A stretch of DNA of 64,000 nt, taken from positions 64,001 to 128,000 of IMG/VR virus record IMGVR_UViG_3300021255_005861; one strand, written 5' to 3'. The position numbers and the translations under genes were made by a program. How positions within the stretch are numbered: the first letter of the stretch is position 1; each line of letters begins with the position of its first letter. Below the pieces are notes generated by a model, which saw only the letters and a program-made list of their open reading frames with translations, searched no databases and was not told the DNA's origin. The stretch is from a virus (Duplodnaviria > Caudoviricetes). This document shows, in pieces, positions 3,222 through 35,900 of the stretch.

Positions 3222-4247
3222 ATGATTATTGACCGCATACTCGACCGAAAGGGCTGGGAAGAGGACGGGAAGTACGACTACTACGACCCGAAGGAGTTCT
3301 ACAACGACATGATGGGCTATGCCGACATGGGCGGAGAGGAGATAGCCCGCGCCATGGACTTCGGCGAGGAAGAGGACGTCCGCAGGGAACTCTGCAAGTA
3401 CATCACCGACCATAACTACAACCCCGAGATATGCAAGTACATCAACTCGGTAAACTGGCTCACGGCCAACGAGCCCCCGAAAGTTAAGAAGGAGCCGTAT
3501 TGGGTCAAGTCCCACGGCGTGAACCCGATATTCAAGTACGTCCTTCGCCGCATGGAGTTCGGCGAGCCTTACGACTACAGCGAGTTCGCGAAGATAGTCA
3601 AGAAGGAAGCCAAGCCCGGATTCCACGGACACCACCCGCTCTACTACGCCGTCGTGACGTACAAGGACGAGACGGAAACGAAGGAAGTGCTCTGCGACAT
3701 GGTGCGCCGCAACCTAAGCAAGTTCGTGGATATGGACGTGGATAAGATATGCAACTTCGTGAACTCCGTGGACTGGATTCCGTCGAAGAAGACGGAAGAC
3801 TACGACGAGTCCGGCTACGTCCCGTGTCTCGTGGATTCCTACGACGGGGACTGGCTGTGGGAATTCTCGGGAGGGAACTCCATTGATGATTGCGGATTCG
3901 CGTTCAACGTGGACAAGTGGGTTGCGCTCGCGGGGATAGAGGACAAGGATGTTGCCCGTCGCCTCGTCGAGAATAACGACATGCTATCGGAGGAGTTCGC
4001 TCGTGTGGCCATCAGGTCCTTCTCCGTGTCCGCCGGCGGGTTCTATTCCGACGGGGTGCGTACTTCCGTGGAAGACCTCCCCAGCAGGGACGAATTCGCG
4101 GGCATGCTCAAGGACTGCGTGGACAACGTACTGAACATCAACCTTGAGGGGCTGGCCGAGGACGTCGAGCAGGCGCTGCTCTCCGACGAGGTCGTGGACA
4201 AGATGTACGACGAGTTCTACGACACCTACCACAATTACGAGGAGTAG
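3222..4247 (+). CDS. Hypothetical acidic protein with an internal duplicated module
   Basis: EICKYINSVNWL and KICNFVNSVDWI repeats. Confidence 0.7.
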   Translation: MIIDRILDRKGWEEDGKYDYYDPKEFYNDMMGYADMGGEEIARAMDFGEEEDVRRELCKYITDHNYNPEICKYINSVNWLTANEPPKVKKEPYWVKSHGVNPIFKYVLRRMEFGEPYDYSEFAKIVKKEAKPGFHGHHPLYYAVVTYKDETETKEVLCDMVRRNLSKFVDMDVDKICNFVNSVDWIPSKKTEDYDESGYVPCLVDSYDGDWLWEFSGGNSIDDCGFAFNVDKWVALAGIEDKDVARRLVENNDMLSEEFARVAIRSFSVSAGGFYSDGVRTSVEDLPSRDEFAGMLKDCVDNVLNINLEGLAEDVEQALLSDEVVDKMYDEFYDTYHNYEE

Positions 4248-4251
4248 TCCT

Positions 4252-4776
4252 ATGCTCAAAATCCGAGTTCACGAAAGACTTAACGAGGCATTCAACCCCA
4301 AGACCGTCAAGATTGGCAACCAGGTGTGGATGGCAGAAAATCTCGCCATTGACGATGGTGGCGAGGGTATTAAGGTTCGGAATGGAAATACATATTATGA
4401 TTGGGATGCTGCGATGCGTGTGGCTTCAAACATAAAAGGTTGGCATCTGCCGACATTATCCGAATTTGAAGATTTAGTTGAATTTGTAGGTCCCAAACCC
4501 GCAAATAAATTGAAATCCACAGAGGGATGGGTATTTGAAGAATGGCGGGGTTTAGATACAAAAGGCACTGATGATTTTGGATTTACAGCCCTGCCCGTGG
4601 GGTGTATGGACGTAGCGGGTCTTGGAGGCGTAGGCTACCGCACTCGGTTTTGGAGTTCCTCTTGTAGTGATAAAAAAACCGCCCGAACACTGTCATTATG
4701 GAATGATTTGTCCCGTGTAAATTTCCTACACGATGATAAAGAACTTCTTTTGTCCGTCCGCTTAATCAAGGACTAG
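4252..4776 (+). CDS. FISUMP (Fibrobacter succinogenes major paralogous) domain protein with N-terminal tag
   Basis: TVKIGNQVWMAENL, YYDWDAA, GWHLPT..EF..L, GTDDFGFTALP.G, FWSS, SVRLIKD motifs. Confidence 0.85.
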   Translation: MLKIRVHERLNEAFNPKTVKIGNQVWMAENLAIDDGGEGIKVRNGNTYYDWDAAMRVASNIKGWHLPTLSEFEDLVEFVGPKPANKLKSTEGWVFEEWRGLDTKGTDDFGFTALPVGCMDVAGLGGVGYRTRFWSSSCSDKKTARTLSLWNDLSRVNFLHDDKELLLSVRLIKD

Positions 4777-4780
4777 CCCT

Positions 4781-5458
4781 ATGCCTCGCAGCCTCGACGA
4801 CATGGAATACCTCAAGGGCAAGCACGCCCAGAACGTGATAACGAATATCGCGGACCTCCATACCTATGTCGCCTTGAAGCACAGCATATCCATCATCGGG
4901 TACAACACCGAGGTGTACCTGCCCCGCGAGGGCAAGCGCATCGACGAGCCCGAGGAACTGACACCGGGCGGACGCCCCGACCTATACGGCGCCCCCATAC
5001 TGGGCGACTACGAGCCCGAGACGAGAACGGGCTCCCTCTACAACGACAAGGACCATGAGTACCTGTACGAGGACACCCCGGACTTCATCGCCCGCATCGC
5101 GTTCCTCGACCCGCAGGCGCAGCCCGTTATCCGCGGCACGGATACGTTCATCAGCGAGGAGAACACCGCCTACACGCTCAAGTGGACCGACGGCGAGGAG
5201 GGTTCCGTAGTGGACAGCGCCCGCGACGACATCGTCACGTCCCGCCCGTACCCCCAGCCGATATCCTACAAGGACGGCAAGCCCACGCACCGCAACTACT
5301 GCCCTGGCGATATCGCCCTCTACAGCAAGCTGCTCATTCACTACGGCGGCGAGGACTTGAGCTACTTCGTGAAGAACGTGCGCGTGCTCCGCAACCCGAA
5401 TGCCAAGTACGAGGCGCATGAAGCCCTAATTTACCTGGATTTAGTCCTCCACTTGTAG
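4781..5458 (+). CDS. Hypothetical protein (possibly structural)
   Basis: Clean ORF with phage codon usage. Confidence 0.65.
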   Translation: MPRSLDDMEYLKGKHAQNVITNIADLHTYVALKHSISIIGYNTEVYLPREGKRIDEPEELTPGGRPDLYGAPILGDYEPETRTGSLYNDKDHEYLYEDTPDFIARIAFLDPQAQPVIRGTDTFISEENTAYTLKWTDGEEGSVVDSARDDIVTSRPYPQPISYKDGKPTHRNYCPGDIALYSKLLIHYGGEDLSYFVKNVRVLRNPNAKYEAHEALIYLDLVLHL

Positions 5459-5481
5459 CAAAAAAGAATTATATTTACGGT

Positions 5482-8247
5482 ATGCCTAAGTCCGCATTTC
5501 TACATAAGAAGAGTCTGCTCGACACGTTCAAGGACGACTACAGGGTCACGAACCCGATAAAGGCCGCCCGAGCCGAGCGCACGTGGGACAACCCCATCGT
5601 GCGCCACAAGCGCGAACGCGAGATAAACAAGTGGGCTCACTCCTTCGCGGGCAAGAAGCACTTCAGGAAACTGACGCGGTTCAACGCCACCAGAGAGGCG
5701 AACGAGTCCTGCCGGGTGCTATACCCGCTGGAAGACGTGGTCAAGGTGGTAACGGACGCCCTGCGAACCATACGGACGCGCATATACCAGGTGGACGGGT
5801 ACTACCAGTTCATACAGGACAAGTTACAATACGGCATGGTCGTGGCCAAGGATATCGCCCACAGGGACTTCCCGTACAGGTGGGAGGTGCAGGCCAACCT
5901 GGTCACGCGCTTGAAGAAGGGCAACGAGATAGTAATGGAATACCATCCGGATACCCCGGAACAACTTAGCGAGTACCTTCAGGAAGAAGGTGCTATAGAA
6001 TCCAACGAGGCTAAAATGAAGATCAGCGTACGCGAGAGCAAGAAAAACGAAAAGGACGAACCGACCTACGTATGGTTCGGCCTGGAACATGACGAGGACG
6101 GGGATTATACTGACTCCCTGGCCGTATTCGTGGACGACGTTTCCAACGGCATGGTTACGGTCTATGCCCACATGGGACAGCACTCTTCTGCGAGCCTGGA
6201 CTACGTGGCAGGACTGGAAGCAGACCCGAACCCGAAGGGCGACTTGTACAAGGAACTCATCGGACAGGGCTACGACAACCTCGTGGTTGTTAATACGGAT
6301 GTGGCCGAGGATATGCTCGGCATCCGCATGCACCCGGACGACGATGCCCGCGAACTTGAAGACCCGGAGAAGTACGACAAGTACGAAGCCCGCGAGGTCA
6401 AGACGGCCTGGACGTATCTCGGGGAACTTGAAAAATTGGAAGGTGCTGACTCCCGCAAGGAGGCTACCGGAAAGATGCTGGATGCGCTCGGCTATACGCA
6501 GGGTACTGAAGGTCGCTGGTATGACGATGAAGGCGACGAGGTGAATATCATCGACGTGCTTGACAACACTGAGTGGGACAAGGCCGTGACTATATGCGGC
6601 CCGCTCCAGGAGTCCAAGAACGCCCGCGAGGACTTCTACAAGGGTAAAGACCGCGGGTTTCTCGTGCTCGTGCAGAAATTGATTGCCGACAACTGGTATG
6701 CCGGTGCACGCAAGGAATATCCCGGCCTTACCCTCGACTGCTACGAGATGGACGGTGCCGGCGACGACATGAAGATTTGTTTCGAGGCCTACGGCGAGGA
6801 GATAGACGACCCGATGTCTGAAGGCCTCATGGAGGTAGCGGAGGAGTCCGCAAAGAAGGGATGCGCCGACGCGAACCGCAGTACCTACCCGCGTATCGCG
6901 GACTACGGTCTGGAAGCCAACTTTATCAGTTGGGACGAGCCCAACGTGTTCCGCGACCAGTGGAATTACGTGATAAACTTGAGTTCCAAGCCCAAGGGCA
7001 AGAAGGGCGAGTCCAAGAAACAGGCCAATGAAATGGTTGGTAATAAAAAATGGGTTATCCGCATCAAGCGTCTTGGTAAGAACTATTACGTATGTAGCAG
7101 TTCGTTTAGAGTCAATAAGGCATTCCGTTATCCTTCATTGGGTGGACCATTTGTCTGCTCGGATTGGGATATAACTGAAAGGGATATAGCCAAATACGAC
7201 AATTACAATGACGCAAAGAAAGCGTGGGATAGTATGGCACAGGTTCTACGTGGAGGATTGCCATTCTATAAGGAAGGTGAAGATTACGAGATAGTCCAAG
7301 TAAATTTTTCTATGATGGGCGAGTCCAAGGAACCTGCCGACGAAAAGTTGGGTTATGAAAAAGGACACAAGAACAGCAAGGGCGAGCCTGCCCCGTGGGT
7401 TATCCGTTCCCACGAGGACAACCGCGTACTCGCCTCCTTCGCGAACAAGGACGATGCCTACGCCCACCTCCAGCGCATGAAGCAGTACTCTGAGAGCCGC
7501 TCCGTGGACGACTACGACACCCTGCGTGACGGACTCAAGGAACTCGGCTTCGAACTTGACTCCGATACCCGCAATGGTAAGGTCTACGCCTACCGCTCCC
7601 GCTTCAAGGCTACGAAGGACGGAGTTGTTTACCGGTTCATCATAAACGAGGACGGAGAGGATACCGCTTCCATCGAGGTCTTTGTCGGCGACGACGAGAA
7701 GTCCACAAGATACAAGACCGTGAATGACGTGCTGACAGCATTTAAAGGTACGTCCGAGTCCTTCCACAAGGTCCAGGTCAAGGACACGCTGTTCGACATT
7801 CTCAAGAAGCACGGGGTAAACGACAAGGCCAAGGTGTCCTATGACGGCGACGCCATCGTGTGCGAGTATGACGGCACCACGATCCGTATCGACAACGACC
7901 TCGCCCTGACCGCCAAGATGCAGGACAAGACCATCGACCGCAAGTACGGTACGCTGGCAGACCTCTCCGCAGACCTGGACAAGTATTTTACCAAGTACGT
8001 CAAGGAGTCCCTTGAGAAGAACGGCGTCATCGTCGTTCCCGAATGGTTGTGGATAGCCTACGAGACGGGCGACTCCTCCAACCTCTCCGTCGAGGAGGAG
8101 CAGATACTGGATGGGTTCCGGGCGATGGCCGCGGGCAAGGTGTTTGACGCTGAAGCCGAGCCCTCGTTCAGTGCGTTCAACGACTTCGACGACTACGCCG
8201 GAAACTGCTACGAGGTGCAAGTCTATACAATCAAGGAAGGTGTATAA
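5482..8247 (+). CDS. 921 aa multi-module polyprotein-like protein
   Basis: Unrelated ~60-110 aa modules separated by ESKK/ESKN/ESKE/SES linkers; internal RBS and ATG at 6016 (MKISVRESKK). Confidence 0.75.
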   Translation: MPKSAFLHKKSLLDTFKDDYRVTNPIKAARAERTWDNPIVRHKREREINKWAHSFAGKKHFRKLTRFNATREANESCRVLYPLEDVVKVVTDALRTIRTRIYQVDGYYQFIQDKLQYGMVVAKDIAHRDFPYRWEVQANLVTRLKKGNEIVMEYHPDTPEQLSEYLQEEGAIESNEAKMKISVRESKKNEKDEPTYVWFGLEHDEDGDYTDSLAVFVDDVSNGMVTVYAHMGQHSSASLDYVAGLEADPNPKGDLYKELIGQGYDNLVVVNTDVAEDMLGIRMHPDDDARELEDPEKYDKYEAREVKTAWTYLGELEKLEGADSRKEATGKMLDALGYTQGTEGRWYDDEGDEVNIIDVLDNTEWDKAVTICGPLQESKNAREDFYKGKDRGFLVLVQKLIADNWYAGARKEYPGLTLDCYEMDGAGDDMKICFEAYGEEIDDPMSEGLMEVAEESAKKGCADANRSTYPRIADYGLEANFISWDEPNVFRDQWNYVINLSSKPKGKKGESKKQANEMVGNKKWVIRIKRLGKNYYVCSSSFRVNKAFRYPSLGGPFVCSDWDITERDIAKYDNYNDAKKAWDSMAQVLRGGLPFYKEGEDYEIVQVNFSMMGESKEPADEKLGYEKGHKNSKGEPAPWVIRSHEDNRVLASFANKDDAYAHLQRMKQYSESRSVDDYDTLRDGLKELGFELDSDTRNGKVYAYRSRFKATKDGVVYRFIINEDGEDTASIEVFVGDDEKSTRYKTVNDVLTAFKGTSESFHKVQVKDTLFDILKKHGVNDKAKVSYDGDAIVCEYDGTTIRIDNDLALTAKMQDKTIDRKYGTLADLSADLDKYFTKYVKESLEKNGVIVVPEWLWIAYETGDSSNLSVEEEQILDGFRAMAAGKVFDAEAEPSFSAFNDFDDYAGNCYEVQVYTIKEGV

Positions 8248-25099: not shown

Positions 25100-27787
25100 A
25101 TGGCAGATACATACAGGCCCTACGTAGCGGAACTCGCGGACAAGCGCGGATACATCCACCCGATACATGCGAAGCAACTCGCGGAGGAACGCACCGTCAC
25201 GATGACGGGTGACGTGACGGGTACGGCGAACTGGGACTTCGGGGAGCCCGCGAGCGCATCGCAGGCGTCCGAGTCCATGGCCCTCAGCATCGGCGAGCAG
25301 AAGGTCACGACGCCCAAGCTGGCCGACGGGTCGGTAACCACTCCCAAGGTGGCCGACGACGCCGTGACGCTTGCGAAGATAGACGACAACGCGATGAACG
25401 GCACGGTGCAGGACAACGACTCCAAGCTGGCGACGCACGCCGCGGTCAAGACGTACGTGGACGCGCAGATAAGCGGGCAGGGCACGTACCTCGGCAAGAA
25501 GACCGTGGCCGAGGTCAACGCGATGGTGACGGCGAACCTGCACAACGGTGACCGCGTGCAGATGGCCGACGCGGGCACCATCAACCTCGGTCCGGGTGGC
25601 GTCGGGTTCGACGTGGTGGCGGGCGAGGACCTTATCCTGTACAAGTCCGGGAGCACGGTGCAGTGGGACACGATGGACGGGGACTTCAAGACGAAGCAGA
25701 CGCCCGTGTCCGACCCCGCGGCGGACGGCACGACCATAACCGCCATCGACACGGTATCGCAGAACGCAAACGGCGAGATAACGGCAACCAAGAAGACGAT
25801 ACGTACCGGCAACGGGTCGAATATCGGCGTGGTCAAGCTGTCAGACTCCACCAGTTCCACGTCCGGCGTGAGCGGTGGCGTGGCGGCCACTCCCGCCGCT
25901 GTAAAGGCGGCCTACGACCTGGCGTCGAACAAGAAGGACAAGCAGACCGCCATCGACACGGACACGTCGTCGGGGTCGGGCAAGGGCGGGACTACGCGCA
26001 CGCTGACGCGCCTGCAGCAAGATGCGAACGGCGTCATCACGCCTACGTTCGCTGACATACCCACGGCCTCGGAGCAGACGAAGGGCCTGATGGGAACTGC
26101 CGAGTACACGAAACTGTCCGGGATAGCCGAGGGTGCTGAAGTCAACCAGAACGCCTTCGGCAACGTGAAGGTCGGGAGTGCCACTATAGCGGCTGACTCG
26201 AAGACGGACACGCTGGAGATAGCGGGCGGTACGGGTATAGACGCAGTCGGGGATACGACCAACGACAAGGTGACGCTGTCTCTGAACTCGGCAACGCAGG
26301 CGTCGCTCGGAAAGGCCGATAGTGCCGTGCAGGACGTGACCGTTGACGGGGTCAGCGTGGTCAACTCGTCCACGAAGGTAGCGGCAGTGCCGAACGCCAG
26401 CACTAGCGCGAAGGGCGCGGTGCAGTTGGCGGGTAGCATCGGGGCGACCGTAGCCTCCGAGAACAACAAGGCCGCGACGGAGAAGGCGGTAAGGGATGCC
26501 ATCAACGCTCTCGATGCCGAAGTGACAAGTAATGACGGCACGAACGTTCAGGTCAAGGTGACGGAGGCCGACGGCAAGATAAGCGCGGTCAATGTCACGA
26601 CGGACAACACCGAGAACAAAAACAACAAGGTGTCCTCGTGGCAGACGACGCCGGACAACACGCACTACCCGAGCGAGAAACTCGTCAAGGACGAGCTGGA
26701 TGCGAAGGCGGATGCGGATAGTGTTGTGGCGATTGCTGACGCATCTGTATTACGTCGCGGACAGGTCGGTCAAGGGTGGTACAAACTCGCAGAAACTACA
26801 ACTCCCCGTGCTAACTACAATATAAACTCGGTTTTTGACGTAGTTGCATCAACGTCTAATTGCGGTGAACTTCGAGGTTCTTTCGTGATGAGCGTTCGGT
26901 ACGAAGGCACCGGCGTAGTCAATGTATTTACGAAATCATTGTTCAGCGATGACTGGTCTTCTGATTATCCTATTAAGATTGTTACTACTAAAGTATCTAG
27001 CACTGTGCTTAAAGTGGAACTGTTTTTCGGTGTTAATCCGAGTAATACGACTACCGCCGTATACTCAGGAATAAGCCTCTCCGAACAAAATGCGGGAAAC
27101 TACGGCGGCGTCAATAAAAAGAATGCTTGGACTTACACGAGTTACACGGATGTTGCGGGCTCTGCCTCTCCAGAGCCCGACCCTACATCGGACAAGGAAG
27201 TCGTAGACGTTGACATTGTGGCTCGCCAGCACGCCATCGCCTCCCCGACGAACAACAACCTCGTGGCGATGGACGAGAGCGGACTAGTCAAGGACAGCGG
27301 GCTCACGAAGTCGTCCGTGGAGAGCGCCATCACGTCCGCAGGAACCGCCATACAGGGCGTGAAGGTCAACAACACCACGCTCACGCCGGACGCGAACAAG
27401 GTGGTGACGGTGCCGCTGGCCACGACGAGCGCGGACGGCGCGATGAGCGCTGCGGACAAGACGAAACTGAACAATGCCGCTACGTACACGCAGAGCAGCG
27501 GTACAGCGCCCGTCAAGGTGGACGCGTATGGCGCTTTGACTGCAGTCCCGATGGACAGCACTCCCACCGCGTCGTCTACCAACCTAATGACGAGTGGAGA
27601 CATCAAGACCGCGCTGGACGAGGCCATTGCCACTAGCCTGACCGATGTGGAATACGTGGCCGCACAGAGTGGCGGTGGCGGCAACCTCAACAAGACGAAG
27701 AACGGCACCACGACATCCGTGCTGTCCTTCATGACAACCGCCGAGGCCACCTCCCTGTGGCAGTCCGCGTGGGCTGCCGCCAACTAA
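25100..27787 (+). CDS. Long tail fibre protein
   Basis: VTTPKLAD repeats, GVVKLSDSTSS..AATPAAVKAAYD fibre repeat, A-T-S-rich. Confidence 0.85.
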   Translation: MADTYRPYVAELADKRGYIHPIHAKQLAEERTVTMTGDVTGTANWDFGEPASASQASESMALSIGEQKVTTPKLADGSVTTPKVADDAVTLAKIDDNAMNGTVQDNDSKLATHAAVKTYVDAQISGQGTYLGKKTVAEVNAMVTANLHNGDRVQMADAGTINLGPGGVGFDVVAGEDLILYKSGSTVQWDTMDGDFKTKQTPVSDPAADGTTITAIDTVSQNANGEITATKKTIRTGNGSNIGVVKLSDSTSSTSGVSGGVAATPAAVKAAYDLASNKKDKQTAIDTDTSSGSGKGGTTRTLTRLQQDANGVITPTFADIPTASEQTKGLMGTAEYTKLSGIAEGAEVNQNAFGNVKVGSATIAADSKTDTLEIAGGTGIDAVGDTTNDKVTLSLNSATQASLGKADSAVQDVTVDGVSVVNSSTKVAAVPNASTSAKGAVQLAGSIGATVASENNKAATEKAVRDAINALDAEVTSNDGTNVQVKVTEADGKISAVNVTTDNTENKNNKVSSWQTTPDNTHYPSEKLVKDELDAKADADSVVAIADASVLRRGQVGQGWYKLAETTTPRANYNINSVFDVVASTSNCGELRGSFVMSVRYEGTGVVNVFTKSLFSDDWSSDYPIKIVTTKVSSTVLKVELFFGVNPSNTTTAVYSGISLSEQNAGNYGGVNKKNAWTYTSYTDVAGSASPEPDPTSDKEVVDVDIVARQHAIASPTNNNLVAMDESGLVKDSGLTKSSVESAITSAGTAIQGVKVNNTTLTPDANKVVTVPLATTSADGAMSAADKTKLNNAATYTQSSGTAPVKVDAYGALTAVPMDSTPTASSTNLMTSGDIKTALDEAIATSLTDVEYVAAQSGGGGNLNKTKNGTTTSVLSFMTTAEATSLWQSAWAAAN

Positions 27788-27805: not shown

Positions 27806-29848
27806 ATGGCTGAATCATACGACGAAAAGGGGATACTTGGAAAGGAACTTAAGTCCATCCTTACCGGAGTGGCCTCCGAGATAAAGAAGAAACTGGACAT
27901 CGACGACGTAGAGACCGTGGACGGAACAGCCACCTTCGACGCCGAGAACCACCGCCTAATCTTCAACAACATCATCTTCGACTCCATCTACCCGGTCGTA
28001 GGCAAGTACGGCCTCGCCGTGTTCCCCGAAACCACCAACGACCCCGACGCCACCGAGTCCGCGGGCGACCCCGAGTGGCTCCTGGACTGGCGCCCCTACC
28101 TCGTGGACATGTCCGCTGTCGCCGGCGAGACCGCCAAGACCCCCGTCGCCTCCCTCCAGCGCGACAACTGGCTCCGCTCCGTGGACGGCTCCTTCGCCCC
28201 CGTCTGCGGCGTCAAGTCCACCCAGGCGAACGCCCTGAACAACCTCGCCGCTTCCCTCTACTGGGACTCCGCCAAGACGAACCTCGTCACCGCCATCTGC
28301 CCCGGCGCGTACGACGCCTCGGGCAACTTCCAGGCCGAGTACTTCTGGAACTACGTCAAGGACAACCTCTCCACGGTCAACGCCAAGGCGGGCATAACCT
28401 ATTCCTGCCCGATAGAGGTCAAGCTGTACAGCGGGTTGGCTACGTACGAGTACGGGGCGTACACCGACTACCACATCCCCGCCCCGTGGGAAACGACCGA
28501 GACCAAATACTCCGTGTTCGTCGGGCGCGCCTCCGACGTGTACGTCGTGGACGGCTACTCCGAGACCACGGGCGAGCACATGCGCGGGCTCGCCGCCAAG
28601 GCCGTCCCCGTGGGCAGCGAGGGCTTCGACCCCGAGTTCTACCGCCTGCGCCGCACCGGCATCTCCCCCGGACCCTCCACCACGGTAGGGAACAAGGTGC
28701 GCAACTTCTTCTACAACTACAAGGGCGTGGACTCCAACATGGCGGGACACAACGGGACCGCCTCCACCGGCATATTCTACAACAACGGCACGTATCCCCG
28801 CACCGTAGACGCCAGCCAGTACAGCACGGCCTCGTGGTCGCGCGCGTGCAACTCCGGGGGAAGCTCCGGGAACGCCGTGCCGGTGGGCGAGATGGGCTAC
28901 CACGCCCTGAACGCCTTCCTGTGCTCCCTGGAGGCGGCGTACGGCACCCGCAACCTGTGGGATGCCAACCGCTTCAGCGAGGGCGTGAGCGCCAACTTCT
29001 CCGCCTCCGCGGCCAACGGTGGCGTCAGCGTCGACGGCACGTGGAAGAAGTGGGATACCTTCGAGTCCACGCTCGGCGTGTCCGGCAACTACTCCACGAC
29101 CATAAACAACCAGTACGCCAAGTTCCAGTGCATGGAACCCCAGATTGCCGCCTCCCTCGCCACCGAGATGGGGATTTCCGCCGGCACGTCGTTCCACTGG
29201 AACGGCGGAGACTGGCACTTCGAGGTGCCCTCGAACCTGGGCACCGTGAAGACACTGGGAGGAGGGGCGATGAACTGCCGCATGTACAAGCTCACCGACG
29301 CCAAGACGGTGAACGGCCATACGGTCAGGTGCAACCTGGTGTGCGCACTGGCCGAGGGCGTGAACCCCGTCGGCGACATCTGGTGGTACGTGGGCGGCGG
29401 TGCCGAACTAGTGTACCTCACCGACGGCACCGGGAACACCAACTACAAGGCATTCTTCTACCTGGAACCGGACCAGGCGAAGTGGGTGAATACCAGCACC
29501 ACCGAGAAGATTACCTCGGGGACATTCGCCTTCGAGTCGTCGTATAGGAAACTGCTCGACGCAAGCACCGCGGGTGGACTGGGAAACACGTACTGCCTGG
29601 CAAGGACCGGGTACACGCCCGTCAGGAGGGTGCCCGGAGGCGCGAACAACACCGGCGAATGCACCTATCAGTACAGGCAGATTGACGACGACGCCAAGGG
29701 TTCCGCGGGGATACGTTCCCGGCGCAGGATGATGTTCCGTGGCCGTGCGGCTTACTCGTTCTGCTCGCCCCGCTACCTCAACTCCGGTGGCCGCCCGTCC
29801 CTCGCCAGCGTCAACCTCGGTTGCGCTGCCCAGGTTCTCCTTGCATAG
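27806..29848 (+). CDS. DGR target protein (probable receptor-binding protein with C-terminal CLec-like variable region)
   Basis: 3' end contains the VR; located directly downstream of the tail fibre gene. Confidence 0.85.
   Translation: MAESYDEKGILGKELKSILTGVASEIKKKLDIDDVETVDGTATFDAENHRLIFNNIIFDSIYPVVGKYGLAVFPETTNDPDATESAGDPEWLLDWRPYLVDMSAVAGETAKTPVASLQRDNWLRSVDGSFAPVCGVKSTQANALNNLAASLYWDSAKTNLVTAICPGAYDASGNFQAEYFWNYVKDNLSTVNAKAGITYSCPIEVKLYSGLATYEYGAYTDYHIPAPWETTETKYSVFVGRASDVYVVDGYSETTGEHMRGLAAKAVPVGSEGFDPEFYRLRRTGISPGPSTTVGNKVRNFFYNYKGVDSNMAGHNGTASTGIFYNNGTYPRTVDASQYSTASWSRACNSGGSSGNAVPVGEMGYHALNAFLCSLEAAYGTRNLWDANRFSEGVSANFSASAANGGVSVDGTWKKWDTFESTLGVSGNYSTTINNQYAKFQCMEPQIAASLATEMGISAGTSFHWNGGDWHFEVPSNLGTVKTLGGGAMNCRMYKLTDAKTVNGHTVRCNLVCALAEGVNPVGDIWWYVGGGAELVYLTDGTGNTNYKAFFYLEPDQAKWVNTSTTEKITSGTFAFESSYRKLLDASTAGGLGNTYCLARTGYTPVRRVPGGANNTGECTYQYRQIDDDAKGSAGIRSRRRMMFRGRAAYSFCSPRYLNSGGRPSLASVNLGCAAQVLLA
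29718..29834 (+). repeat. DGR variable repeat (VR)
   Basis: 117 bp match to the TR; all 10 differences are at TR adenines. Confidence 0.95.
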
Positions 29849-29857
29849 GGGGACACC

Positions 29858-29907
29858 CGGCGCGCAGCGCCGCACGCAGTGCGGCCAACGGCACGGCGCA
29901 GCCGTGC
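29858..29907 (+). promoter_or_regulatory. DGR target-recognition hairpins (three GCA-loop stems)
   Basis: CGGCGC-GCA-GCGCCG, GCCGCAC-GCA-GTGCGGC, GCACGGC-GCA-GCCGTGC. Confidence 0.75.
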
Positions 29908-30053
29908 GTAACGTACAAACTATCAAGGAGGTGCTCCGTATAAACTAACACGGGTCGGACTGCCGACCCCGGTACGGCGGACAGGCGAGCGAACGCAGCA
30001 TCAGGACCGCGTCTACGAACCCGAACTACGCCGTAACGAACGGGACCGACGGA

Positions 30054-30170
30054 CCCGGCGCAGGATGATGTTCCGTGGCAATGCGGCTAACACGAACTGC
30101 TCGCCCCGCTACCTCAACTCCGATAACCGCCCGTCCCTCGCCAGCGTCAACCTCGGTTGCGCTGCACAGG
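30054..30170 (+). repeat. DGR template repeat (TR)
   Basis: AAT/AAC-rich copy of the VR. Confidence 0.95.
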
Positions 30171-30321
30171 CTAGGCTAGACTCGAGCAATGCAGAAACTA
30201 CGCACGGTCCCGTGCCCAAGAGAGGCGAACATAAAGTACAAGGTCCCGGAAGGCGAGAGCCCGAAGAGGGGACCGACCGGCACCGCCGGTCACGCTGCCC
30301 AAACCTGGGCGGCGAGTCATC

Positions 30322-30347
30322 AAGCCCGGAAACTACCGGGCGTTTTT
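30322..30347. terminator. Hairpin between the TR transcript and the convergent RT gene
   Basis: GCCCGG-aaacta-CCGGGC followed by gttttt; overlaps the RT stop. Confidence 0.55.
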
Positions 30348-31688
30348 CATCCCGTCCGGCAGCGCCAGGTTTCCCCGTGCACAGTACAGCTCGCGGTTAG
30401 TAGTGCCTTTGAACATGTAGCCCATAGAGTTCTCGAGTTCGCAGCCTTCTATCGGCAGCACGTCCTCGCCCGCCGCTATCAAGGCCTTGACGCGGGCGAG
30501 GAACTCCACGACGGCGGGTGCTTCCGTCTTGGCCGTGTAGCGCAGTTCCCTTCCCGTGGGCTGTCCGTCCACATACTCGGGCACGCCGACGAGCAGGCGC
30601 ACCCAGTTCGGCGTTTCCTTCCCGTCCTTGCCCTTCGCGTAGCGTAGCGAGAAGTCGTACAGGTTGAACGGGGCTCGGGCGAGTTCCTTGATGGCGATGG
30701 GTTCCGCGTCGAAGGCACGGTCTATCTTTATCTTTTCCGTGAGTTTCGCGAAGTTCATCCTTTCCTCTATAGATTTCATCGTGTCGTAGGAGTCCGTGTG
30801 CCGCAATATACCAAAGTACGACGCCCACGACTTGTCGGACCTGCAGGCGCGGGCGCGTTTGAGGATGTTGCGCCGTACCCGCGTGTACTTGCCTTCCCGG
30901 TATACTACGAGCCCGCAGAAGGACACGGGGCACCTGTCCATGTCCACAATGGCGGGGTTGCGCTTGGCGAGCACGCCGTACTCGTACCACCAGAAGTTCT
31001 TGATGCGCCACTTGGCGGCATTCGCCTCCTCCCTTGTGCGGAAGAACAGGATAATGTCGTCGGCGTAGCGGAACTTGGGGCCGGGGACTGACCCGAGCCA
31101 GCGGTCGAAGGCGAGCATGATGATGTGGTGGGCGAGCGGGGACGTGGGCGTGCCTATCGGGAACGAGTTCACGTGGAACGTGACGGCGACGCCGAAGTCC
31201 ACGAGTTCCGGGTCGTCCGTGAGGGACTTGAGGGCGCGACGAAATAGCCTCCTCGTCATGTGGCCGTAGCAGTGGCGCTGGTCGATGTGCAGGGCGTAAT
31301 GCAGGTCGGTGCGGGAGTAGACGACGGACTTGAGGCGGTGGGCGAGGGAGGTGTCCGGGTTGCGGGCGTGGATGCCGTAGCCCTTCTTGCAGTTGAAGGC
31401 GACGTGAGGGTCCATCTTGCCGTATAGTGGCTGGACTAGAAGGATGAACAAATGCTGCAGGACTCTCGTGAAGAGCGACGGCTGCTCTATGTGGCGTTGT
31501 TTGCCGTTCGAGTTGGTGGTGTCGAACTCGCGGTAGGACAGGGGGTAGTCGCGGAGGGTTACGGCTCGGGCTACGGCCAGGGCGTAGTCGTTGGGAGAGT
31601 CGAGCATGGCACGCACCTCCGCCCTGCGGGAGTGGCCGCGGGCGGCGTTCTGCATGGCCAGTAAAATTTGTTCGAAAGAAACCTGCAT
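30333..31688 (-). CDS. DGR reverse transcriptase with a ~140 aa C-terminal extension
   Basis: GKQRHI..P..RVLQH, HIDQRHCY, FPIGTPTSP, FRYADD, FCG, SYFGIL. Confidence 0.93.
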   Translation of the reverse strand: MQVSFEQILLAMQNAARGHSRRAEVRAMLDSPNDYALAVARAVTLRDYPLSYREFDTTNSNGKQRHIEQPSLFTRVLQHLFILLVQPLYGKMDPHVAFNCKKGYGIHARNPDTSLAHRLKSVVYSRTDLHYALHIDQRHCYGHMTRRLFRRALKSLTDDPELVDFGVAVTFHVNSFPIGTPTSPLAHHIIMLAFDRWLGSVPGPKFRYADDIILFFRTREEANAAKWRIKNFWWYEYGVLAKRNPAIVDMDRCPVSFCGLVVYREGKYTRVRRNILKRARACRSDKSWASYFGILRHTDSYDTMKSIEERMNFAKLTEKIKIDRAFDAEPIAIKELARAPFNLYDFSLRYAKGKDGKETPNWVRLLVGVPEYVDGQPTGRELRYTAKTEAPAVVEFLARVKALIAAGEDVLPIEGCELENSMGYMFKGTTNRELYCARGNLALPDGMKNAR

Positions 31689-31742
31689 CTAGGAAATCCG
31701 TTGCGTTTGAACTATATTGTATAGTAAAAAGGAAAGGTACGC

Positions 31743-31913
31743 ATGGTAGAGATACGCGAGGTACAGTACAGGAAGGACGGCATACTGCACGTCCTCACGT
31801 TGCCGGGAGCAGTGCGCATAGAGGACATGGACGCGGATACGGTGGACGTGGAGCGTTGCATGGTCGAGGTGCTGGACTACCTTCGCCGCGAGTGCGTAAT
31901 TACGAGGAAGTAG
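31743..31913 (+). CDS. Small hypothetical protein (56 aa)
   Basis: RBS AAGG; fills the gap before the 31917 gene. Confidence 0.5.
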   Translation: MVEIREVQYRKDGILHVLTLPGAVRIEDMDADTVDVERCMVEVLDYLRRECVITRK

Positions 31914-31916
31914 AAG

Positions 31917-34061: not shown

Positions 34062-35900
34062 ATGTCTACGAGAGAACGGGTACTGCAACGGGTGCGGGAA
34101 CTACGAGCCCAGCATTTCCACCCGTCGCGCCTTACTGACGGCGACCGATTCCTGTTGGAGCGCCTAACTACACTGCATGGCTACCGCACCTTCTACACGG
34201 GAACCCCGCAGGGCGAACTCTTCATACACTGGTTCTACCGCGACCGCTCCGAGGACCGCCTGTCCCGCTGCGAGATATTTCACTTGAACATGCTCCGCTA
34301 CTTCAACGTGATGGACAAGGTGGAAGCCATACATATCCGTTGTGCAACGACACAGGGAAAGACCCGCGCGATGGAGCAGGCGATATCTATTATCTCCGAG
34401 GGTCACGCGTCCGTGGACTTCCAGTTAGTGACGCCCAAGCGCTCGTGGGAACACGACACCTTCAAGGAGTGCGTCGAGTACGCCGTGTCCTCGGGCAAGT
34501 TCGTATACTACATCCACTTCAAAGGCGCCTCCCGCATTTCTGATCCAACCCTGGGCATACCCGGCAGGATACTGAACCACTGCTCCGAACTGGACCTGCT
34601 CTATTGGAACTACCTCATGTACCTTGCGATGTTCAACGCCCCCGACGGCGTGAAGGCCATAGGCCCGCTCCTGCACAAGGGAATGAACAAGACGTACAAG
34701 AACAGGGACAAGTCGTGGTCGCAACTGTGCACGGGGGCTCAGGTGTTCCACTACTCAGGCAGTTTCCAGGCCTTCTCCGGCAACTACATCCGCGAGTGCC
34801 TCTCCGCATGCGGTATGGCAGACCGTCCTGTAAGGGACGCCAGGCTGTGGGTCAACGACCCGTATACGGTAGAGATGTTTCTCAGCCTCGTAGCCTTGCG
34901 GAAGGACGTGTATTCGCTAGACGTCCCCTATACGGCCACCAACGGGATATACGCCTGTTACACGAAACACAAGATTCCGAAGTATGAGGCGGCGTTTAAA
35001 AAATTATTTGCAAGTATTTGTATTGCTAATTGGTCTTATAAGAATATTGGTGGAACTGAAACGTTTAACTATGCTTTGGCAACGGCCTTAAAACAATTAG
35101 GGTATTTCGTTTGTTATTATTCGCCTAATATGGGTGTTGACGGGCTTACAGAAAAGGAATTGGTTGCCGCGGGTATTACCCCTTATAGGGGCGAACCGCT
35201 TCTTTGTTGCTTTGCTAATCAAAATGTCGGTGTGCATTTTTTGGGGAAATGCCCTGTTATACAGACGTGTCATTCTGCAATAATAGGCCCCGAACGGCCT
35301 ATTCGTAATATGAATGCTTACGTATCTATTACGGAAGAAGTTTCGGACTACTTGGATAAACTTGGATATAAGTCTGTACAGATTAGAAACGGTGTTGATT
35401 TGGAGCGGTTTAATTCCCGGAAACCTTTGCGTGCTATACCCCGAGTTCTTTCTATTTGTCAAGGCGATGACGCTTTATTGCAGGAAGCCTGTTCTCGTTT
35501 GGGGTGGTCTTTCGTGAATGTTCCAAAATCTTCGGATGCTCGTATATGGCACATAGAGGATTTGATAAACGACGCTGATATCGTTGTAGGCATAGGACGC
35601 TCGCTCTACGATGCCATGGCGTGCGGACGTGTTTGTATTTCGTGGGATAACCGTCCGCTGAACCCGTATACGGGTTGCGGATACGTGACGGCTGAACGCT
35701 GGCATGACTACGCCCGCACGAACTTCACGGGGAGAGGATATCCGAGGATAGACACGGTAGATGGGCTTATACGAGAGTTATGTAAGTACCGCCCCGCGGA
35801 CGGGGTTACGATGCGGGTATTCGCCGAGCGGGAGCTGGACATGCGCAGGAACGTGCTGAAGTACTTGGCGTTGGCCGGGATAGAAATAAGCAAAAAGTAA
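34062..35900 (+). CDS. Two-domain glycosyltransferase-like protein (GT-B/GT4-like C-terminal half)
   Basis: GGTETF, IRNGVDLERF, ADIVVGIGRSLYDAMACGR. Confidence 0.75.
   Translation: MSTRERVLQRVRELRAQHFHPSRLTDGDRFLLERLTTLHGYRTFYTGTPQGELFIHWFYRDRSEDRLSRCEIFHLNMLRYFNVMDKVEAIHIRCATTQGKTRAMEQAISIISEGHASVDFQLVTPKRSWEHDTFKECVEYAVSSGKFVYYIHFKGASRISDPTLGIPGRILNHCSELDLLYWNYLMYLAMFNAPDGVKAIGPLLHKGMNKTYKNRDKSWSQLCTGAQVFHYSGSFQAFSGNYIRECLSACGMADRPVRDARLWVNDPYTVEMFLSLVALRKDVYSLDVPYTATNGIYACYTKHKIPKYEAAFKKLFASICIANWSYKNIGGTETFNYALATALKQLGYFVCYYSPNMGVDGLTEKELVAAGITPYRGEPLLCCFANQNVGVHFLGKCPVIQTCHSAIIGPERPIRNMNAYVSITEEVSDYLDKLGYKSVQIRNGVDLERFNSRKPLRAIPRVLSICQGDDALLQEACSRLGWSFVNVPKSSDARIWHIEDLINDADIVVGIGRSLYDAMACGRVCISWDNRPLNPYTGCGYVTAERWHDYARTNFTGRGYPRIDTVDGLIRELCKYRPADGVTMRVFAERELDMRRNVLKYLALAGIEISKK

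Follow-up and report, generated by a model that had tools for sequence, protein, structure and literature searches.

We analysed a 64,000-nt stretch of phage DNA (hereafter the window; positions 64,001 to 128,000 of IMG/VR record IMGVR_UViG_3300021255_005861), which belongs to a large gut or rumen phage record of ~185 kb and carries a diversity-generating retroelement (DGR) with a template repeat (TR), a variable repeat (VR) in a target gene and a gene for a reverse transcriptase (RT). With a probability of about 0.8, comparisons between related genomes indicate that the element belongs to the GxxxSP type of DGR and is apparently active, and that it is probably made up of two parts, a free-standing TR RNA and a single-polypeptide RT, which would work without the accessory protein Avd to diversify a receptor-binding or tail protein at its C-terminal tip.

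In the mechanism that we propose, the first part would be a self-contained, structured plus-strand RNA of ~350 nt (roughly 29990–30347), in which a long-range duplex holds the TR as a loop between its two strands. Behind the duplex, this RNA would have a short hairpin, then GAA, a conserved stretch without pairing, stem-loops and a terminator of its own. The second part, the RT, would be made from a separate minus-strand mRNA, bind the TR RNA in trans and copy the TR with errors at adenines, whereupon the cDNA would replace the VR; Avd would take no part, the RT carrying a family-specific C-terminal domain instead. We further infer that priming occurs in cis from the spacer behind the TR, that the duplex acts as a ‘stop’, by analogy with Bordetella phage BPP-1, and that the TR RNA is transcribed either by read-through or from its own promoter; any role of the C-terminal domain is likewise presumptive.

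The DGR cassette and its reverse transcriptase

Repeat searches and pairwise alignment revealed a direct repeat of 122 nt (29713–29834 versus 30049–30170). Within its 117-nt core (29718–29834 versus 30054–30170) there are ten mismatches, all ten at TR adenines, just as an original prediction made from this DNA had stated; in the five bases flanking the core there are two further changes, G>T and A>T. Adenine makes up 19% of the TR, and a mismatch pattern confined to adenines would arise by chance with a probability of ~6e-8. Nine of the ten core mismatches lie at the first or second codon position in the target-gene frame, and the TR (30049–30170, plus strand) read in the VR frame is rich in AAY codons. 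The VR (29718–29834, plus strand, its homology with the TR reaching back to 29713) makes up the final 40 codons, at the 3′ end, of a 680-aa open reading frame (ORF; 27806–29848, plus strand), which probably encodes a receptor-binding or tail protein with the VR at its C-terminal end. This target gene comes after an 895-aa ORF with a Phage_fiber_2 repeat (25100–27787), in line with the predicted position behind a tail fibre gene, and its product shares 32% identity over 625 aa (E 3e-71) with the DGR target of crAssE-Sib (OR575929), an epsilon crAss-like phage. A search of the whole 185.7-kb record, rated 85% complete and classed as a provirus, found one TR, one VR and one RT.

The RT is encoded by a 451-aa ORF on the minus strand (30333–31688), which ends 163 nt from the TR and has its stop codon inside a terminator hairpin (30324–30347), so the predicted convergence of an opposite-strand RT on a hairpin is borne out. 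Because the TR and the RT lie on opposite strands (plus and minus, respectively), the TR RNA must be a transcript separate from the RT mRNA, also as predicted. Between the target stop codon and the TR there are only 200 nt and no avd-sized ORF; the one ORF of that size near the TR (30065–30400, 111 aa) results from reading on through the TR in the VR frame, and a family search with it gave no match.

The RT contains the predicted motifs PIGTPTSP (residues 177–184; 31137–31160) and YADD (residues 208–211; 31056–31067) and matches RVT_1 of Pfam weakly. Its best sequence match in the PDB is bRT, the RT of BPP-1 (8ub7, E 0.0015), and a Foldseek search with its AlphaFold (AF2) model (pLDDT 84.6, pTM 0.61) again returned bRT as the best match, with a TM-score of 0.80 on the target and a root-mean-square deviation of 2.9 Å over 325 columns of the 328-residue chain. 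As bRT, thumb included, superposes onto residues 1 to ~315, the N-terminal extension, fingers, palm and thumb must all lie within that stretch, which agrees with the coverage by phrog_1423, a generic phage RT family in PHROG (residues 3–317); we place the RT core at residues 1–312 (30753–31688, minus strand). Group II intron RTs share GxxxSP in motif 4 and provide the next-best structural matches (GsI-IIC RT). They differ in that the window RT comes without intron RNA, maturase, DNA-binding or endonuclease domains, has a far weaker sequence match to them than to bRT (E 0.5 versus 0.0015) and would function in TR-templated mutagenesis.

A search of 5.8 billion proteins places this RT in a family of at least 190 clusters of ~440–480 aa that match the query over its whole length, with a query coverage of 96–100% in 120 clusters among the matches listed. 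An alignment of 28 family members shows no variation in PIGTPTSP or ADD and good conservation over the 140 C-terminal residues. The best match in the phage collection is the RT of crAssE-Sib (39% identity, residues 1–435), which adjoins an annotated VR, IMH (initiation of mutagenic homing) element, TR and IMH*, and the family is the published, though little-studied, GxxxSP type known from epsilon crAss-like phages.

The TR RNA and the inversion of the RT

The TR flanks of seven loci in which the RT is inverted and 16 in which it is co-oriented with the TR (alignment A6, 23 loci in all) were folded together with RNAalifold, revealing a conserved, covarying RNA scaffold around the TR. All its elements are on the plus strand of the window. 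In the 5′ flank, a conserved hairpin, Pa (29994–30011; A6 columns 78–82/91–95), has compensatory changes at five of five pairs. In the minimum free energy (MFE) fold, the TR is closed by a long-range duplex between ACGGGACCG (30040–30048) and CGGTCCCGT (30205–30213). Behind the duplex follow a short hairpin, Pb, and GAA (30213–30229; A6 columns 325–329/334–339; compensatory changes at four of five pairs), a single-stranded segment of near-invariant columns with the family consensus ATAnAAGACAAG (30230–30243), and three stem-loops seen in the alignment and the MFE fold (30241–30313), the last of which (30294–30313) holds the conserved CTGCCCAAACCTGG. The RNA ends at an intrinsic terminator (30324–30347), scored as such on the plus strand, which overlaps the RT stop codon and has a 6-bp GCCCGG/CCGGGC stem (30324–30341) and a T-run to 30347.

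The 5′ hairpin, the 3′ hairpin with GAA, the single-stranded segment and the last hairpin are the same in the inverted and the co-oriented groups, and in co-oriented relatives the motif of the last hairpin (CTGCCCAAACCTGG/CCCAAACTTG) lies directly before the RT start codon. Hairpins with T-runs are also found in three inverted relatives (L090, L091 and L094); in the inverted subclade, the TR RNA appears from its sequence to have become a free-standing transcription unit with a terminator of its own. A helix of at least 8 bp occurs at the place of the long-range duplex in 46 of 53 non-redundant loci, formed by many unrelated sequences, and its median length is 12 bp for a locus’s own strands versus ~7 bp for mismatched partners. 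These values come from contiguous-run counts with cross-pairing controls, which replaced RNAduplex with shuffles after the latter gave over-extended duplexes and uninformative z-scores; the duplex search recovered the BPP-1 duplex at Sp63–70 as a control. RNAalifold missed the long-range helix in the mixed alignment because its 5′ strand is out of register between the clades. Rfam yielded only chance-level matches to the TR RNA and no family.

In BPP-1, the avd:Sp duplex, a short stem-loop and an unpaired GAA form the ‘cPRT Stop’; behind it come the ‘Thumb Ring’, which is single-stranded, and a stem that binds bRT (Handa et al., bioRxiv 10.1101/2023.10.23.563531). The RNA of the window has the same succession of an upstream/downstream duplex, a short hairpin, GAA, a single-stranded stretch and stem-loops, and 30230–30243 would correspond by position to the Thumb Ring. 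The distance from TR to duplex, which in BPP-1 is 58 nt and includes the 31-nt Avd-binding stem-loop Sp3-33 (10.1101/2023.10.23.563531), is only 34 nt in the window (30171–30204) and ~20–25 nt in most relatives. A spacer of 20–34 nt thus has room for a primer strand only and none for an Avd-binding stem-loop, and so short a distance would fit an Avd-free particle, judged against BPP-1 and independently of any gene search. The spacer itself is the candidate primer strand, and TGCAG at 30190–30194 can pair with CTGCA at 30162–30166 near the TR 3′ end, a short candidate pairing.

To place the orientation of the RT in context, 80 loci each were fetched from viral contigs and from metagenomes, and every one was scanned for A-biased repeats. 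At 121 loci, target, TR and RT all lie on one strand, and the RTs of these loci are at most 47% identical to that of the window. The inverted arrangement of the window recurs at eight loci, six of them distinct (L002/L095, L082/L083, L088, L090, L091 and L094; 57–61% identity), and at L171, whose RT is 92% identical; each inverted locus has 11–18 A-specific VR differences. In a maximum-likelihood tree, the inverted loci form one clade (support 98/96) that is sister to L177 and nested in co-oriented lineages, with paths of ~1 substitution per site and with RT ORFs and RNA scaffolds intact in all members. The RT phylogeny that the original prediction had proposed as a check therefore shows that the inversion was a single event kept across a deep clade.

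The sister locus, L177, has one RT (4001–5419, plus strand) and two complete TR-spacer modules on opposite strands and 3 kb apart, only one of which is co-oriented with the RT. Each module has its own long-range duplex, hairpin, AAGACAAG motif and diversified VR, the repeats lying at 759–885, 1139–1265 and 5536–5657 on the minus strand and at 3750–3871 on the plus strand, and the two VRs sit in two different large tail-fibre-like genes. A single RT with TR modules on both strands shows that it works in trans, and the RT of the window would likewise find its RNA in trans.

Avd, the C-terminal domain and alternative readings

As Avd probes we used PF22296 and NF033474, the families of bAvd, which find bAvd in BPP-1 with E 2e-37 as a positive control. 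In six-frame searches they returned nothing at E ≤ 10 in the 185.7-kb record, the complete crAssE-Sib genome and two 100%-complete relatives. No Avd-family gene is detectable in the DGR genomes searched, and what had been predicted for the gap between target and TR holds, by these profiles, for the rest of the record as well. PF05635 and TIGR02436 gave no matches but also missed bAvd in BPP-1 and were discarded. An all-against-all comparison of the ORFs at 24 diverse loci found no common gene family except the target, the RT and antisense shadows.

In every full-length family member, the complete bRT-like core is followed by a domain of ~110 aa (residues 326–435; 30384–30713, minus strand), set off by a basic, low-confidence linker (residues 314–325) that is itself preceded by an invariant Met311. 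The original prediction had left room for this extension to be an ordinary thumb; it is not, because the bRT-like core, thumb included, is already complete by residue ~315. Modelled alone (AF2, pLDDT 72.6), the domain is predicted to fold into three long antiparallel beta strands, a helix and short strands. It has no Pfam match (E ≤ 10), no sequence-profile match in the PDB and no Foldseek match in the PDB, and it is not a member of the bAvd families. A profile search of 1.84 billion representatives retrieved 109 proteins, all of them C-termini of ~450-aa RTs or fragments. The domain is therefore exclusive to the GxxxSP-type RT family and not Avd-like. It is acidic (pI 4.9–6.7, net charge −6 to 0), the RT core being basic (pI 9.3–10.2), as is bAvd (pI 9.6). 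By structure, the best matches of the domain in BFVD are other long phage RTs, A0A8S5MQF5 (602 aa, E 1e-4) and A0A8S5RML5 (493 aa, E 0.012), and RT families left unconnected by sequence profiles may also carry an appended domain of this kind.

A search with the domain also gave 76 short matches that look like stand-alone genes. The five that we examined in context (P0140, P0147, P0149 and P0157 among them) proved to be parts of RTs that a frameshift, a single TGA codon or a deletion has interrupted, at residues ~118, 240, 243, 298 and 305; a split-gene architecture was rejected, the break positions being variable, and the stand-alone homologues beside DGR RTs for which the original prediction had suggested looking did not turn up. 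Broken RTs are found in many genomes: at L084–L087, L172 and L173 (epsilon crAss-like and other contigs of 54–154 kb), the RT is broken by a frameshift, a single in-frame TGA or an N-terminal deletion, and the domain ORF starting at the invariant methionine stays intact; one such 123-aa product occurs in 78 blocks of the collection index. The original prediction had also noted a GAGG before an ATG at 30758. The ATG of Met311 (30758–30756) is indeed preceded by GAGGAAAGG; the same purine run codes for Glu-Glu-Arg, and Met311 is invariant in 28 divergent RTs. Internal initiation at Met311 to give a separate domain protein is possible, and coding constraint fits equally well.

What the domain might do bears directly on the absence of Avd. 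It could be a fused functional replacement, along the lines of the fused accessory protein that the original prediction had inferred; by bracing both the N-terminal extension and the template:primer duplex, it would let a single polypeptide stand in for bRT and the Avd pentamer. We put this explanation forward tentatively and at less than even odds. Such a role would suit a domain found in every full-length family member and nowhere else, in an RT family that lacks Avd even in complete genomes, whose RNA leaves no room for the Avd-binding stem-loop and whose 24 compared loci have no other conserved neighbour gene. Avd, however, is a helical bundle, whereas the domain is predicted to be beta-rich; its charge is opposite to that of bAvd, its placement relative to the core is uncertain in the AF2 model at the pTM given above, and no stand-alone homologue turned up, the short matches examined in context being broken-RT pieces. 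DGRs without Avd are also common, 29% lacking an accessory gene (Architecture A; Wu et al. 2018, PMC5758913). No firmer, in our estimate, is the full minimal scheme, a two-component DGR in which the core and a domain taking over the bracing by Avd would act in trans on a ~350-nt RNA that has the stop module and lacks the Avd stem-loop, with adenine mutagenesis achieved without the SQ glutamine. Rather unlikely, though backed by three weak and mutually consistent leads, is that the domain serves as a small module for binding single-stranded nucleic acid, like phage single-stranded DNA-binding proteins (SSBs) or oligonucleotide-binding (OB) folds, which would hold cDNA or single-stranded RNA. 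The top of the VIA-align list consists mostly of OB-fold proteins that bind single strands, such as SSB (that of PRD1 included) and PriB (Z 3.3–5.4, below the stated noise level); Foldseek on BFVD gave two podovirus models named ‘SsDNA binding protein’ (E 0.03–0.08); and the ESM Atlas returned a cluster with 13% Phi29_Phage_SSB (score 0.89). All these scores are below the tools’ stated noise levels, and the empty Foldseek search of the PDB, the neutral to negative charge and the lack of a family relation at the sequence level speak against such a module.

Several points weigh against an active, Avd-free element. Since Avd is a small and divergent protein, it could be present and yet escape a profile search, and for the genome of the window an avd could lie in the missing 15% of the record or in the host. 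The activity of the DGR is judged from comparisons between genomes. Compared with its nearest relative, the TR of the window is five adenines short, and its 3′ third does not differ from the VR of the window, which could mean lower activity. The long-range helix reaches p ≤ 0.05 in only 19 of 53 loci, against a control contaminated by related sequences. A scan for sigma-70 promoters found no site for the TR RNA, the consensus being one that may not be the host’s. Two further explanations draw on these points. Supply in trans of Avd or another helper, from the missing part of the record or the host chromosome, would suit an incomplete provirus and the fact that Avd is required in BPP-1 (10.1101/2023.10.23.563531); it is nevertheless very unlikely, since complete genomes of the same family have no bAvd-family match with a control that works, and the RNA lacks the position of the Avd-binding stem-loop. 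Most improbable of all is that the cassette is a relic in which a rearrangement flipped the RT and diversification ceased. The lower adenine count of the TR than in its nearest relative and its identity to the VR in the 3′ third would favour such a relic, but the inversion is common to a deep clade whose members all have intact RT ORFs, intact RNA scaffolds and A-specific VR differences of their own, and the VR of the window differs at adenine sites from that of the 92%-identical relative L171.

A comparison of the window (30121–30158) with L171 (6519–6640) shows that their TRs differ at seven positions, five of which are adenine in L171 and another base in the window. This change looks like a VR-to-TR conversion or a homing of cDNA into the TR, and leaves fewer mutable sites.

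Relation to known DGRs and further features of the window

The canonical DGR of BPP-1 has the order mtd-avd-TR-brt, and structures of its bRT–Avd–RNA particle are available (8ub7 and related; 10.1101/2023.10.23.563531). With this system the window shares adenine-specific transfer from TR to VR, an RT core that superposes on bRT and the cPRT Stop layout of the RNA. It differs in having no Avd gene and no TR co-oriented with the RT, an RT with an extra C-terminal domain on the opposite strand, and a motif 4 that ends in SP in place of the SQ of the BPP-1-type I-G-x-x-x-S-Q, in which Q187 of bRT touches the incoming nucleotide.

Much closer is crAssE-Sib, for which the GxxxSP motif was published as unexpected in a DGR RT and the target was modelled as a C-type-lectin fold (Viruses 2024, PMC11054128); that paper makes no mention of Avd, the C-terminal domain or the RNA scaffold. 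The two elements have RTs of the same family, with GxxxSP and the C-terminal domain, homologous targets, no avd between target and TR and the same flanking RNA elements. Of the features of the GxxxSP family, the window thus has the motif with YADD and the full-length homology including the C-terminal domain, and it lacks the order of target, TR and RT on one strand: in crAssE-Sib all three share a strand, whereas the window and seven relatives have only the RT inverted, with a TR RNA that appears to end at its own terminator.

The architecture, which the original prediction called unusual, was overstated in this respect, since each oddity is already on record in PMC5758913 or PMC11054128. In the survey by Wu et al. 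(2018), TR and RT can be on different strands, and ~20% of DGR RTs carry up to 150 aa of unexplained additional sequence at the C terminus (PMC5758913). The window resembles the DGRs surveyed there in lacking an accessory gene, in its different-strand TR and RT and in its C-terminal extension; it goes beyond the survey, which gives no account of a clade-level RT inversion and draws no link between extension and lack of Avd (PMC5758913). Avd-less DGRs, opposite-strand RTs and C-terminal extensions had all been noted by 2017–2018. The survey reportedly relied on SQ-type RTs. Apparently new, as far as literature was found, are the clade-level inversion with its one-RT, two-TR intermediate, the C-terminal domain exclusive to the GxxxSP-type RT family and the Avd-less version of the stop-element RNA.

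The mechanism of DGRs is known mostly from the Bordetella bRT–Avd–RNA particle, to which the GxxxSP family offers a natural comparison: it has no Avd, SP for SQ at the nucleotide-touching residue and an extra domain, and it keeps the stop duplex, hairpin and GAA and drops the Avd stem-loop. Should RT and RNA alone be enough, tools for targeted mutagenesis would gain a simpler system, and what Avd is needed for could be tested directly. This abundant family of gut and rumen phages is probably under-counted in DGR surveys, because myDGR misses SP-type DGR elements on account of their GxxxSP motif (PMC11054128).

Directly 3′ of the VR, the window has GC-rich inverted repeats with GCA triloops on the plus strand (29859–29907), an overlapping pair at 29859–29871 and 29869–29885 and a further one at 29891–29907. 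Hairpins with GCA or GAA loops after the VR are also found in relatives of the inverted clade; the folding z-score of the repeats is not significant in this GC-rich stretch. By analogy with BPP-1 (PMC5758913), they may serve in target recognition. At L088, a ~330-nt insertion between the VR hairpins and the TR (~5250–5690, minus strand), absent from the other inverted loci, holds a stretch with tRNA-like acceptor and T-arm sequences, in which ARAGORN calls no tRNA.

Upstream of the RT lies a divergent intergenic region (31689–31916) with an AT-rich stretch next to the RT start, the putative RT promoter; the sigma-70 scan found no consensus site there either, with the same limit on the consensus. 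A megablast search with 20 kb of the window gave no match in the phage collection. Two genes past the RT, a 612-aa ORF (34062–35900, plus strand) resembles glycosyltransferase family 4 at a score below threshold (26.8 bits versus a cut-off of 28.5).

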